Positions 18,689-51,711 of a stretch of 64,000 bases of DNA are shown here, piece by piece (position 1 is the first letter of the stretch; the number at the start of each line of letters is the position of its first letter). The notes under the pieces were generated by a model that was not told the origin of the DNA, did not search any database, and was given only the letters and a program-made list of their open reading frames with translations. A program made the position numbers and the translations under genes. The stretch is taken from NCBI GenBank assembly GCA_964016885.1, contig OZ024752.1:46314001-46378000 (forward strand), given 5' to 3'. This stretch comes from Eledone cirrhosa (lineage: Eukaryota).

Positions 18689-18891
18689 AACGAAGGAGTT
18701 GTAGTAAGGAACCAGGTGGACCATAACGCACCAAAGTACTCAATACTTAGGGTAGTAGAGTGGGTAATAGGAACAAGTATGTCCCCGACGACAGATCTCA
18801 AGCTGTTTCGACGGCTATTTCTGGACTGAAATTTCAGTCCAGAAATAGCCGTCGGCTTGAGCTCTGCCGTCGGGGTCATACTTTTTCCTAT
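18689..18891 (-). mobile_element. Fold-back element family D (Penelope-like pLTR fragment with hammerhead 3' half), inserted in (TA)n
   Basis: About 80-bp tail plus about 120-bp palindrome; homologous copies at 24084-24280, 30960-31099, 41060-41272 and 43095-43220; flanked by (TA)n. Confidence 0.7.
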
Positions 18892-19033
18892 ATATATCAA
18901 TATATATATATATATATATATATATATATATATATATATATATACATATATACATACATATATACATACATATATACAGACACACACACGCACATATATA
19001 TATATATAGAGAGAGAGAGAGAGATAGAGAGAG

Positions 19034-19250
19034 AATAAGAAAATACAAAGTAGTTTAGATGTTAAAGTCCTTTATTGATAAGGCTGTGATACATATTTCG
19101 ATGGCAGTGGCCACACTATTCTGTCATCATGGCCTTATCATTAAAGGACTTTAACCTCTAAACTTTGTATTTTCTTATTCTAAAAATACTCTGTCACTCC
19201 TGTGAGTAAAATGCATATTGAGTTCTTGAATTACATCAATGTTTTACCAT
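19034..19250 (+). mobile_element. Fold-back element with a degenerate hammerhead in the loop and an ATACTC/GAGT tail
   Basis: Arms about 19034-19084 and 19132-19179; loop on the minus strand reads ATGATGA...GAAA TATGTA TC. Confidence 0.55.
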
Positions 19251-20544
19251 ATATATATATATCATCATCATCATCGTTTTATGTCCGTTCTTCCACACTA
19301 GCATGGGTTAGACGGGTTGTCCTGGTTGTGGGCAATGTCCAGTCGGCTGACCTTGTCTTGCTCATAGGGGAACTGATTCTGGCTTGATTTCTTCAGAGCG
19401 AGACATGGTCACCCAACCAAACTTACCTCAAATGGGACAATTCTCGTCTAACCCATGCTTGCGTGGAAGATAGACGTTAAACGATGATGATGATGATGAT
19501 GATGATACATATACGTGTGAGTGTGTGAGTGTGTGAGTGAGTAAGTGAGTGAGTGTGCATGTGTGTGTGCGTGCATGTGTGTGTGTGTGCATGTGTGTGT
19601 GTGTGCGAGTGTGTGTGTGTTTATATACCTTTAGTGTGTGCATGTGTTAGTGTGTGTGTGTGCGAGTGTGTGTGTGCGAGTGTGTGTGTGTTTATATAAC
19701 TTTAATTTCTAAGGGATGTGACATAATGTGGACAGGATGTAGATGAAGTTGTGAAAATCCCTGAAGACGTAACGAAACATCCACATGTGGTAACCCTAGA
19801 ATCTTGGTAGGCATTCTATTTCAACAAGCAGTTATTTATGGGTATATATATATATATATACTTGGGGAGGGTCATATTGTTGTAATAATATTGCCAGAAA
19901 TAATAACAGAACACACTCACTGTTTGGTTTTGGTTATTTTTCACATCTGTATCTTTTATATCTCCATAGTTAATTTATTTGGCAATCAATGTTTATCATT
20001 GATTGACCAACGGTTAAAAATACAGATATAAATATATATATCAACTAGAAATTGATTGACATATATATATATGTAAACGTGGTTGGTGTTAGGAAGGGCA
20101 TCCAGCCGTAGAAAACCCGCCAGACAGTCCTATGCGAGCAAGACAACCACTCTTGCCTCAAGTGGGAAAACGCCCGTCCAAACCCATGCAAGCGTGGAAG
20201 ATGGACGTTAAACGATGATGATGTTGATGATGATATATATCTAAAACAATCACAGGGGATAATTTGTAAAGTGTGTAAGCACACACAGCTAGGTAGGTAA
20301 CCAATTAAAGTTTAACTAGAATTTCACATATAGATACCTTTTAAAATGATTAATCTTCCTTGTATATATTTCATTAAAGAAATATATTTCACCATTAATC
20401 AGTAAATCACAGCAGTCAAATCCTGAATCAAATTCTGGATTTGTAGAAATCCTGTAGAAATCAAGCCCAAATCAGTTCCCGTCCCACCCTTGCAAGCAGG
20501 GAAAAGCGGACGTAAAATGATGATGATGATGATGATGATATATA

Positions 20545-20595
20545 GTCTATCAAAGTTCTTTCGTTGCACATCTGCAACATCATCAGTGGTACTAC
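20545..20595 (-). ncRNA. Degenerate type I hammerhead ribozyme motif
   Basis: cca CTGATGA t GTTGCA gatg TGCAAC GAAA gaac TT tga: perfect 6-bp stem II, damaged stems I and III. Confidence 0.5.
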
Positions 20596-20763
20596 TATGT
20601 TTCCTCCTATTGTATTGTAATGTCTATGCCCTTTTTATTTTATTTATAAATATATATGGAGAATGATCTGGCTTTTCTTACGCAACAAAGGACAATGGTA
20701 CGACTGTGACTCAGTGACAGGGGCTCTATATGTTCAGCAGCCCTTTTAAAAATAATAGTTTAA

Positions 20764-48194: not shown

Positions 48195-49199
48195 AATAAA
48201 CCTTTCAAGGAATTACACCAGTCCAGCCTCCTCTTATTTTATAATAATTAACTCCATACTCGCACCACCAACTACACAAAGAAGACGGGTGAGTTGCATT
48301 ACGTCGAGTGCTCTCCCTAATATTACATCAAGGTTGACCATACGGAATGACCAGTTCTATCCAGTGGTGAACCAACAAACCTAAATGAATGTATATATAT
48401 ATATATTATAGATTTACTATATATACACTACATACACTTTATATACACTACATTTAGAATATATATAAACTAAACTACATATGATGTTGTCGAAGGGAAA
48501 GGCAATGGCTGATATAGTTTGGCTCCAGTGACGTCTCAACTCATTTTTACAGCTGAGTAAACTGGAGCAACATGAAATAAAGTGCCTTGCTCAAGGACAC
48601 AACGCATCACCCGGTCCAAGAATCAAACTCATAACCTCTCAATTTCAAGCACAATGCTCTAACCACTAAGCCATACGCCTTCACAGGCAAAATTCAAGAA
48701 GATGAAATCTATTTGTGTACAACATATGTATAGAGGGAAGCTATGCCTCACCAGAAGCAATATAAATAACATTTTTTTTTTAATAGGCTGAAAGTTCAAG
48801 CCCTAGAGAGCAAGATGCAGGCCACTAGAGGTTAAATTTCAGTGGCCTTCATCTCTTGCCAGCATCTTACCCTCAAACAACTGGGAGTTTAAAAACATTA
48901 CAGTTTCATGTCCTCTACAAACTGTTCCTGAATATTCCATATTTAGCAACTTATTTTGTGATAAAAGATTATAAAAACTAGATTTCTCCATCAGTAACCA
49001 ATAGTTTCCACAAGTTTGAGCAATTCTTTCATTTCCTCTCGAGCTGCCCCCCCCCCCCCCCCATCCGCCCCCACCTCCCCCCAAAAAATGGTTTAGACAG
49101 CAAATACCAGCATCGTTGTTGTTTGTTGCTCAGTTTAGCCAACATCAGATGGTCTTATCTTTTCTTTTTGTTTGTTTGTTTTATATATTCAACCATAAT

Positions 49200-50090
49200 T
49201 TCCACCACCGCCACCACCGCCATCAACGTCAACACCTCTGTCACCACCACCACCACCACTCCCAACACCACCACCACCACCACCACCAACAACGTCAACA
49301 CCACTGTCACCACCACCACCACCACTCCCAACACCACCACCACCACCACCAACAACAACGTCAACACCACTGTCACCACCACCACCACCACTCCCAACAC
49401 CACCACCACCACCACCACCAACAACGTCAACACCACTGTCACCACCACCACTCCCAACACCACCGCCATCGTCAACACCTCTGTCACCACCACCACCATC
49501 AACACCATCAACAACACCATGGTGTTGGTGGTGGTGGTGTTAGTGATGGTGGTGGTGGTGGTAGGAGAGGATGGTGGTGGTGTCAGTAGTAGGTGATGGT
49601 GGTGATGGTGGTGGTGGTGGTAGTAGGAGAGGATGGTGGTGGTGGTAGGAAAGGGCGGCAGTGTTAGGAGACGATGGGGGTGGAGGTGTTGGTGGTGGTG
49701 TTAGGAGACGATGGGGGTGGTCTTGGTGGTGGTGGCGGTGGTAGGAGAGGATGTTGGTGGTGGTGGTGTCAGTGTTAGATGGTGGTGGTGGTGGTGTCAG
49801 GAGATGATGATGGTGGTGGTGGTGTCAGTGTTAGATGATGGTGGTGGTGGTGGTGGTGGTGTCAGGAGATGATGGTGGTGGTGGTGGTGGTGTCAGTGTT
49901 AGATGATGGTGGTGGTGGTGGTGGTGGTGTCAGGAGATGATGGTGGTGGTGTCAGTGTTAGATGATGGTGGTGGTGTCAGGAGATGATGGTGTTGGTGGT
50001 GTCAGTAGTAGGTGATGGTGGTGGTGGTGGTGTCAGGGTACAATGGGGGTGTTGTTGGTGGTAGGAGAGGATGGTGTTGGTGTTGGTGGT
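49200..50090. repeat. (ACC)n-rich tract switching to a (GGT)n-rich tract at a palindromic centre
   Basis: caacaccatggtgttg at 49512-49527. Confidence 0.85.
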
Positions 50091-51114
50091 AGCAGTTACG
50101 TACCATACAATGCCATTTCCTGTAACTAGCTTCATTACCCAAACCTCTGTCCATTGAAGAATTAAGGACCACTTAAAGATGGCTCTAATATTCTTATATC
50201 AAGTACTTCCCCTTGTCATAATATTCCATCCCTCCACCTATTGGTCACCTAATAACCTGCTCTTCTATAAACAGCTGCAATGCTGTACAATAAGACATTG
50301 CGTGGGAAATATTATCACCATCCATCACATACCGATTATTTTAATGACCAGCTATATAGTTCTAAATCCAATTTTATCCGGTTAGTTTATATTTAGTGTA
50401 AAAAAATACATATTCAAGCATAGTACACTCCTAAAATATTTAAAATAGCCATCATAAATGCTTCACAGACTCATGGTATCTACCTCAAAGATTTGTGCTG
50501 TTAAAATCTAATTTTGTGAGGTTCTAAGTTTATATTTAGTGTCAAAAAATACATATTCAAGCATAATACACTTCTAAAATGTTTAAAATAGCCATTAGAA
50601 ATGCTTCAGACTCATGGTATCTACCTCAAAGATTTGTGTAGTTCTAAAATCTAATTTTCTGCAGTTCTAATCTAAATTTACTTTTATGCAGTAGGTTTAC
50701 ATTTAGTGTCGAATATTAAATTCACTGAAATGGTAAATGATGATTAAAAGTCTTAAAACACTCCTAGAATGTTAAAAATAGCCCATCACATTAGAAATCC
50801 TTCTCAGACTCGTAGCATCTACCCTGATGTGAGTGGAAAATAATATAACCCATCTCATGTGACTGTATCTCTAATGAAATACACACTATTTCAATTAATT
50901 AATTAAGAATTTTGTGGGATTTCCTAAAATTATTGTCTATATATATATATATAAACCTGGGACGAGCTGATAAACTCCGACCTCACACACTTACACCTCT
51001 CCAAGACAATGTCACTGGACCGAGACCTTTGGCGGTACTCAGTAACAGAGAAGACCCGCCTTACCTAAATACATAGTAAAACCTACTACAGCCAGTAGGC
51101 ATCTCTAACAAAAT

Positions 51115-51448
51115 ACACCCCGTCCCACCACCCCCACCCCCACACCACCCCGTTCTATGTTATGTTGGTGCCACACCATCCAGGCCGAAACAAATGAGAT
51201 CGTGTAGGTGTCACGACAAAAACACACAGTCCACGCTGTAATGTGGCCGTGTAGGCAACACGGTAAAAACCTCCCAGCCCCACACTGTAAATGTGGTTGG
51301 TGTTAGGAAGGGCATCCAGCCGTAGAAAACCTGCCAGACAGTCCTATGCGAGCAAGACAACCACTCTTGCCTCAAGTGGGAAAACCCCCGTCCAAACCCA
51401 TGCAAGCGTGGAGCACGGACGTTAAACGTTGATGATGATGATGATGAT
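51115..51448 (+). mobile_element. SINE family B
   Basis: Same head, core and tail as 24526-25207. Confidence 0.8.
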
Positions 51449-51673
51449 ATGGTCTTTTGATGGATAAAAGGCCTTGGGTGCACTGCCGATCGATGTTCTG
51501 TTTTAAGCGCCGAAATATCTATGATCTGCAGTAAACAGCTGATAAAGGGCTACCTTTCTTCTCTCGTTCACATCCCTATTTCCATTTCAAACTTTGTTTA
51601 CAGTAACCACACAGCCTGCCTCTTTACTTGTATATTTGTGTATATATATATATATATATATATAATCAATTAT

Positions 51674-51711
51674 TTCTCTGAGGAGCTCGTGTGGTGAAAC
51701 ATGTGTAAGAG
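51674..51711 (+). ncRNA. Minimal type I hammerhead ribozyme motif (GUA)
   Basis: TTCT CTGAGGA GC tcgtgtg GT GAAA CATGTG TA AGAG, between two (TA)n tracts. Confidence 0.68.

Follow-up and report, generated by a model that had tools for sequence, protein, structure and literature searches.

Most hammerhead motifs in a stretch of the Eledone cirrhosa genome are very probably terminal repeats of Penelope-like retrotransposons with Hydra-clade motifs

Among Penelope-like elements (PLEs), the Hydra clade has been published as (TA)n-targeting and hammerhead-bearing, including Hydra-1_Obim of Octopus bimaculoides (Craig et al. 2021, PMC8557442); the available part of that description defines it by an RWK-type N-terminal motif, DKT in place of DKG, a CxCx5C linker, no CCHH, and a late CxxC and CxH. 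Minimal hammerheads have been described in metazoan PLEs (Cervera and de la Pena 2014, PMC4209133), and in vitro work on Poseidon PAc of Anolis indicates that both strands are primed, that there are two start sites and that uncut RNA is used (Frangieh et al. 2024, PMC11167929). Metazoan non-LTR retrozymes are non-coding, hammerhead-bearing and probably moved by PLEs (PMC7229834; bioRxiv 10.64898/2026.07.22.740005). We analysed a 64-kb stretch of Eledone cirrhosa DNA (the window) and find that nine of its ten hammerhead motifs are very probably pLTRs (3' terminal repeats) of ORF-bearing, Hydra-motif PLEs, present in (TA)n as 5'-truncated copies, most of them inverted; these probably arose when uncut RNA underwent target-primed reverse transcription.

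The element class has already been described, an octopus family with a hammerhead included; it is the scale that is unusual. With the Hydra clade as presented in PMC8557442, the Eledone elements share a C-terminal GIY-YIG domain, DKT, the CxCx5C linker, the lack of CCHH, (TA)n insertion, a 3'-proximal type I hammerhead and inverted 5'-truncated copies. They differ in carrying RWR or RWT instead of RWK and in the distance between motifs of long elements, 3.7–6 kb here versus <3 kb there; moreover, the accessible text of that study covers one octopus family and gives no genome-wide count, whereas the many families of the original prediction are borne out by 31–37 motif clusters among 97 sampled matches. 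The minimal hammerheads of PMC4209133 likewise lie in pLTRs, with a long stem II and a palindromic stem III, form opposite-strand pairs 100–700 bp apart, occur mostly as single truncated copies, and include a U3-A8 core variant and many families per genome. Their reported number, about 2,000–9,000 per genome, compares with an estimated ~255,000 here under a different descriptor, and the conserved C-Y mismatch that we observe at the fourth pair of stem II is not stated in the available part of that paper. Poseidon PAc (PMC11167929) belongs to another clade and its hammerhead overlaps the ORF start; it resembles the Eledone elements, as we interpret them, in having two sites at which reverse transcription (RT) can begin, so that the tail is optional, in priming both target strands and in using uncut RNA as template, the tail being 30–40 nt there versus about 65–145 nt in these elements.

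All ten complete type I motifs proposed for the window contained CTGANGA, GAAA and TH in the right order. A strict descriptor, which asks for at least 4 bp in stem I, at least 3 bp in stem II and a paired stem III, found eight in the whole window (23891, 25389, 25584, 26653, 26830, 27839, 31624 and 51674), and two fell narrowly outside it, 29418 by a single stem III mismatch and 48137 because its stem II opens with only two paired positions; the stem III of the latter is one base off a palindrome found in locus L154. The ten motifs represent eight insertions, since 25389/25584 (family A, arms 169/172 identical) and 26653/26830 (family B, 152/153) are paired arms of one insertion each. The idea that these are chance matches within AT-rich, repeat-rich DNA could appeal to their short, AT-rich stems and to an Rfam scan with no match at gathering score, in which the expected hammerhead model was also absent among the 150 listed of 314 sub-threshold matches, where microsatellite-driven miRNA matches appeared. 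Against this, 100 block-wise dinucleotide shuffles of the window yielded a mean of 0.04 matches (maximum 1) and the reversed window none, 85 motifs in genome tiles compare with 0.0 in shuffled tiles, core position 7 is free to vary while the remaining core positions are kept, and reverse-read controls were zero in every genome search. The chance reading, to which we give practically no credence, is already refuted.

Stem II positions 5–7, which lie outside the demands of the descriptor, were paired in 26, 28 and 29 of the 30 different motifs, by more than one type of base pair, and the adjoining C-Y mismatch was present in 29/30. In family C, 92% of stem cells were paired, a value reached by 0/500 shuffles and inflated by related sequences; both sides changed in only 2/13 pairs, matched by 467/500 shuffles. 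Palindromic stem III, noted originally in several motifs, was upheld as a dimer-type feature, and few monomers kept an open core in their predicted minimum-energy folds. Family C, whose stem III has 4 bp and a real loop, would be the strongest candidate for activity as a monomer.

Table 1 Hammerhead-bearing elements, fold-backs and fragments in the window
Feature	Position	Strand	Remarks
Family J fold-back	18689..18890	-	Tail and 3' half of a U3-A8 hammerhead; stem II holds the junction; arms 53/57 identical; core in long copies
Family H fold-back remnant	19032..19230	.	Catalytic core lost at inversion; arms 55/59; other copies with intact core; 280 matches
Family I element, 3' part	19860..20035	-	Later insertions lie between it and its hammerhead; identified by visual comparison with L305
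Family I hammerhead	20545..20660	-	Core at 20586; stem II of 6 bp, showing compensatory variants; stem I interrupted; partner ORF not found
Family C fold-back	23843..24025	+	Complete motif 23891–23946; short inverted arm at left; ORF copy L144
Family J fold-back, half hammerhead	24085..24280	-	
Family A fold-back	25340..25780	.	Motifs 25389–25454 (-) and 25584–25649 (+); tail only on + arm; ORF copies L031, L032
Family B fold-back	26529..26935	.	Motifs 26653–26723 (-) and 26830–26900 (+); tail only on - arm; ORF copies L147, L148
Family C variant fold-back	27835..27960	-	Motif 27839–27889; + arm damaged
Family C variant	29404..29575	-	Motif 29418–29468, one stem III mismatch; + arm carries tail
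Family J copy, half hammerhead	30960..31103	-	
Family D	31590..31880	.	Inverted segment with motif 31622–31688 (-), joined to 3' tail on +
Family J fold-back, half hammerhead	41059..41272	+	Arms 60/63
Family G hammerhead	41471..41520	+	Stem III mutated; intact relative in L356
Divergent family J copy	43090..43240	+	
Family E 3' end	48123..48390	+	Motif 48137–48194; family has 2,077-bp non-coding unit
Family F	51661..51765	+	105-bp (TA)n-flanked piece; motif 51674–51711

Genome copy numbers were obtained by pattern searches. Families A–D, which account for nine of the ten window motifs, had 450 to ~48,000 matches each (A, 5,960; B, 14,412; C, 47,978; D, 450), with 4,747 for family E, 280 for H and two for F at ≤2 mismatches. 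The half motifs reported in the window proved to belong to family J, with 39,383 tail matches and a U3-A8 core. Three further motifs had been called degenerate: in 19082 the inversion removed the true core, and 41471 is a mutated member of a family that is intact elsewhere (L356), but 20545 shows no decay and belongs to a conserved family (I, 7,171 matches).

Although the original prediction found no motif attached to an ORF and favoured a non-coding population, pLTR-derived or retrozyme-like, extending the search to genomic copies revealed RT-endonuclease ORFs flanked by the motifs in long copies of families A–D (L031 and L032 for A; 821 open codons in L148 and 775 in L147 for B; an open 713-aa protein in L144 for C; for D, L151, where two motifs enclose a frameshifted ORF). 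The family J motif lies downstream of such an ORF, the C-terminal end of which precedes it on the same strand in 9/25 core-anchored loci, some of them arms of one insertion, and for family H an ORF lay directly upstream in 1/25 loci (L238). No partner ORF was found for families I, G and F in the loci searched; a family I match in L305 sits past a (TA)n run and was excluded from the linked count. Direct motif-bearing pLTRs around the ORF, inverted 5'-truncated copies and the optional tail occur in L031, L032, L034, L147 and L151, in agreement with the pLTR derivation first proposed. The short copies of A–D and J are, judged from these sequences, fragments of ORF-bearing elements elsewhere in the genome.

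The Penelope-like origin also foreseen at the outset is supported by the proteins, single ORFs with RT and a GIY-YIG endonuclease as in EN+ PLEs, for which Pfam support is weak. The open proteins (713 aa in L144, 800 aa in L148) have YRDD and a GIY-YIG-like C-terminus, with a Pfam GIY-YIG match at E 0.012 and no Pfam RT match at E≤1; three frameshifted family A pieces had no Pfam match, and a PDB sequence search returned none. Atlas neighbours at 0.96–0.99 included clusters with GIY-YIG (29–50% of members) and RVT_1 (18–92%). Across families A–C we identified RW(R/T), DKT, YRDD, CxCx5C, CxxC and CxH, plus one Cys within the GIY-YIG core: RWR or RWT in 3/3 proteins covering the N-terminal region, DKT rather than DKG in 4/4, and the CxCx5C linker without CCHH, followed by late CxxC and CxH, in 3/3 reaching the C-terminus. 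These are diagnostic motifs of the Hydra clade, and the clade call is motif-based. A Neptune identity was dropped in view of the linker and the single core Cys; the CX2-5CxxC linker plus CCHH of Neptune, Nematis and Naiad was not found, and the endonuclease is C-terminal here, N-terminal in Naiad.

The predicted (TA)n association held, with (TA)5 within 258 nt downstream of 84/97 sampled motifs against a background of 27%. Each family tested had two fixed 3' ends, and (TA)3 followed 62/78 ends; the family B long-end bin was inflated by (TA)n in the reference, and that end was read from the sequence near +134. Inverted, 5'-truncated copies were likewise confirmed: fold-backs usually use one 3' end per arm, the second arm stopping before the tail at a position that is constant within a family, and 5' junctions differ from copy to copy. 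Junctions were mapped with tail-hairpin seeds, leaving out same-family anchored loci and copies ≤30 nt from a locus edge, and are accurate to a few bases only. They clustered in or beside the ribozyme, not at its cut site: 42/95 family J junctions fell at -45 to -31 from the cut site, in stem II, compared with 7/95 at the cut site itself (-2 to +2) and 0/33 in family C. Because those seven are about twice the neighbouring 5-nt bins, a minor route through cut RNA may exist in family J.

As for abundance, the same descriptor applied to 100 genome tiles gave 85 matches in 999,600 bases, one per 11.8 kb, the basis of the whole-genome extrapolation to about 255,000. The initial figure of one motif per 3 kb is valid inside the chosen interval only; the whole window has one per 8 kb, and ≥8 motifs occurred in 21% of 64-kb resamplings. 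The supposed dense constellation is typical of the genome, and a local ribozyme hotspot was rejected.

In the scenario we propose, the GIY-YIG endonuclease would nick both strands of (TA)n and the RT would begin synthesis at either of two internal sites; the two cDNAs would usually stop early, often at ribozyme helices, and be joined in head-to-head orientation. Activity of the ribozyme would be confined to transcripts that are full-length or tandem, where it would probably need to dimerize or be assisted by protein; in fold-backs it would be inactive, buried in a long hairpin. Family E would be a non-autonomous rider borrowing the same enzyme.

Alternatively, the short elements could be independent non-coding units, retrozymes or SINE-like, that undergo transcription, cleavage and copying in their own right. 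Family E, the only one shown to have a non-coding body, lends itself to this reading: its 2,077-bp unit, common to L156, L256, L155 and L125, lacks PLE-protein similarity and is arranged head to tail in L154, recalling the non-LTR retrozymes in being non-coding and sometimes tandem, although the units described in the available part of PMC7229834 are 170–400-nt tandems with circular RNA. Only 5/95 J copies reach >120 nt upstream of the cut site, and families I, G and F have no ORF link. On the other hand, copies differ in their junctions, the tie of A–D and J to ORFs makes them ORF fragments unlike those retrozymes, and window copies are single or inverted, with no short non-coding head-to-tail tandems. 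We consider this explanation very improbable.

A different question is how the arms were joined. Instead of two cDNAs being joined, one cDNA may have folded back on the ribozyme hairpin and primed its own second strand, as the J junctions at the apex of stem II, rare variants common to both arms in L064/L065 and L066/L067, and arm identities of 93–99% would suggest; the fixed, family-specific end of the second arm short of the tail is easier to reconcile with priming at a second site than with run-off copying, and for the joining step we hold snap-back to be a minority possibility. It would alter that step, not the identity of the elements. Across eight window fold-backs the arms differed at 21 sites, of which 11 were transitions, and no hypermutated arm (an editing scar) was found.

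Target-primed origin from ORF-bearing PLEs remains our preferred reading, and this first junction count favours uncut templates, in line with one in vitro study (PMC11167929, in its accessible part). Since Pfam covers the Hydra clade poorly and Rfam its ribozymes, most of these copies are probably missing from annotations; we found no genome-wide hammerhead count for any cephalopod in a literature search that reached few subscription papers. More speculatively, this could be the densest animal hammerhead load yet reported (~1 per 12 kb, >30 families), in which the ribozyme fold, not the cut, decides where RT stops and folds back, scattering near-perfect inverted repeats through the genome by the tens of thousands, which could serve as substrates for the animal's RNA-editing machinery. 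What is added here is that the half motifs belong to a ~39,000-copy family with junctions piling up in stem II; with dozens of young families, some with open ORFs, one with a U3-A8 core and one a non-coding rider, this genome has copies enough to map the start and end points of reverse transcription against the cut site.

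All ten type I hammerhead motifs reported in the original prediction were present in the window with the type I core order. A strict descriptor demanding stems I, II and III found eight motifs, whereas 100 shuffled sequences averaged 0.04 and never gave more than 1. The descriptor missed 29418 through a single stem III mismatch and 48137 through a weak base of stem II; an Rfam scan of the window gave no match at gathering score. The ten motifs represent eight insertions, two pairs being mirror arms of fold-backs (identity 169/172 and 152/153). Three motifs had been described as degenerate: 41471 is indeed a mutated copy of a family intact elsewhere and 19082 has lost its core to an inversion, but 20545 belongs to a family that is conserved and shows compensatory variation in stem II. 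The half motifs, five family J elements including 18689, are hammerhead 3′ halves; long copies elsewhere keep a TTGANAA core. This is the U3-A8 variant known from Penelope-like elements (PLEs) of schistosomes (PMC4209133); all four bases occur at its position 7 among 2,784 exact matches, and 9 of 25 J loci have a same-strand ORF end upstream.

Hammerhead-bearing families (A–J) and other sequences in the window; match counts are not comparable between families, as the patterns differ in length and permitted mismatches.
Feature	Window position (strand)	Genome pattern matches	Description
Family A	25389, 25584	5,960	
Family B	26653, 26830	14,412	
Family C	23891, 27839, 29418	47,978	
Family D	31624	450	
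Family E	48137	4,747	
Family F	51674	2	
Family G	41471		
Family H	19082	280	
Family I	20545	7,171	
Family J	18689, 24085, 30960, 41059, 43090	39,383 (tail)	
GAAA-first family	25205–25320 (−); fragment 42350–42421 (+)		GAAA ahead of CTGATGA; also at loci L238, L245, L130, L212
Palindrome	36828–36953		Perfect, 63/63, centre (TA)n; CTGATGA in each arm without remaining ribozyme parts
Satellite	8598–14126		53 bp, 104 copies, 97% matches, strong purine skew
Tandem arrays	21461–22755; 39046–39933		40-bp and 41-bp units, mutually reverse-complement-like by eye
LINE-type 3′ end	50956–51450		Terminal (GAT)n, often adjoining (TA)n
Open frame	52547–53521 (−)		324 codons, host-exon-like; no Pfam match

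In the six-base-palindrome group (30 distinct motifs), pairs 5, 6 and 7 of stem II, on which the descriptor makes no demand, were intact in 26, 28 and 29 motifs and varied in pair type; at pair 4, 29 motifs had a C-Y mismatch. Pairing was retained in 92% of cells across 19 distinct family C sequences, but both sides had changed in only 2 of 13 pairs. Minimum-energy prediction left most single motifs outside the active fold, and complete fold-backs gave predicted hairpins with energies between −50 and −259 kcal/mol; read-through RNA would thus be double-stranded, with the ribozyme probably masked. In vitro, PLE minimal hammerheads cleave weakly and as dimers (PMC4209133). Longer copies of the GAAA-first family have an upstream strand able to pair as stems III and I, which is absent from the window copy.

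The window lies at 46.3 Mb on a 50.4-Mb contig of the 3.0-Gb genome, in which reverse-read control patterns had no matches. Family F has a single other match (L142, C12:50.2 Mb), which lies on the window's contig at a distance of 3.9 Mb; it is 105 bp long, nearly identical and flanked by (TA)n. A sample of 100 tiles of 10 kb, placed at regular intervals on 24 contigs (999,600 bases in all; weighting by length not exact), contained 85 canonical (CTGANGA) and 12 U3-A8 motifs, against 0.0 and 0.67 in shuffled tiles, which extrapolates to ~255,000 canonical motifs (bootstrap 186,000–324,000). At least 8 motifs occurred in 21% of resampled 64-kb draws, so the density, originally presented as a dense constellation, is ordinary for the genome. 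The many families, palindromic stem III and (TA)n association recurred in the tiles, whose 97 motifs formed 31–37 clusters, with stem III self-complementary in 78 and (TA)5 at most 258 nt downstream of 84 (background 27%). A second U3-A8-type family (L164, L345, L346, L348, L357) accounted for 7 of the 12 U3-A8 matches, with (TA)n 14 nt past the predicted cut site in the six copies examined. The axolotl genome is far larger than this one. Its 126,247 hammerheads, counted with a different descriptor, are the highest number we found in the literature (PMC7229834), where we found no genome-wide count for a cephalopod.

Searching genome copies for a PLE ORF with RT and GIY-YIG located ORFs bracketed by tandem motifs 3.7–6 kb apart in families A–D, so the originally inferred non-coding status does not hold for these families, whose ORF-bearing copies lie outside the window. 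Loci were chosen by motif spacing among the first 100 matches listed, which establishes existence and not frequency. The ORF is open in B (775 codons in L147, 821 in L148) and C (713 aa, L144), and frameshifted in A (L031 and L032) and D (L151). The other element proteins are 40–42% identical to that of C, and all have in common RW(R/T), DKT, YRDD, a CxCx5C linker and a single Cys in the GIY-YIG core, followed by CxxC and CxH. Such features define the Hydra clade, which inserts at (TA)n and carries hammerheads (PMC8557442); judged by motifs, the element proteins bear its defining features. Hydra-1_Obim of Octopus bimaculoides is given with its hammerhead in the supplement to PMC8557442. Pfam returned only a weak GIY-YIG match, GIY-YIG and RVT_1 clusters were among the Atlas neighbours, and Hydra-like ORF fragments occurred in 17 of 100 tiles.

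Family E has a unit of 2,077 bp that occurs in tandem in L154 and has large parts in common with four other loci. Its longest run without a stop is 126 codons, and it has no similarity to PLE proteins; the family is non-autonomous, with ends of the PLE type. Partner ORFs were sought and not found for I, G and F, and one of 25 family H loci has a suggestive ORF. The elements may sit within or just past the gene at the host-exon-like open frame. In L143 (5212–7069), the (GAT)n-ending LINE-type 3′ end lies downstream of an RT ORF.

Families A, B, C and E each have two fixed 3′ ends, and (TA)3 follows 62 of 78 ends. Of 95 tail-anchored J copies, 42 had their 5′ junction at −45 to −31 relative to the cut site, close to the stem II apex, 7 had it at the cut site and 5 reached past 120 nt; among 33 C copies, 11 lay at −49 to −36 and none at the cut site. 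As junctions fall mostly away from the cut site, most copies were likely made from uncut RNA. The J and C peaks also share a distance of ~130 nt to the long 3′ end, which makes an effect of length inseparable from one of structure. An Anolis PLE in vitro primes both strands from two start sites without needing cleavage (PMC11167929), and its uncut template, two 3′ starts and both-strand priming match the pattern here. The inverted copies originally claimed are evident in the window, where only one of the two arms of a fold-back bears the tail. We favour two separate primings, whose products would then be joined head to head; the main rival, snap-back, would also produce fold-backs and concerns the joining step only. 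A small hairpin (TACTC ... GAGTRC), a candidate protein-binding or RT start signal, recurs in the tails of unrelated families (A, B, C, E, H, J), and in A, B and E (L032, L147, L154) a hairpin like it also comes after the upstream pLTR, the PLE terminal repeat.

Pairs on opposite strands, single truncated copies, numerous families and a palindromic stem III have been described (PMC4209133), as have the clade, its (TA)n target and a member from octopus (PMC8557442). In octopus, a repeat annotation from 2026 lists 31 recently active Penelope-like families, and the word ribozyme does not occur in its available text (PMC13282606). The feature is real and consists of further members of an already known element group, notable for its scale and as test material.
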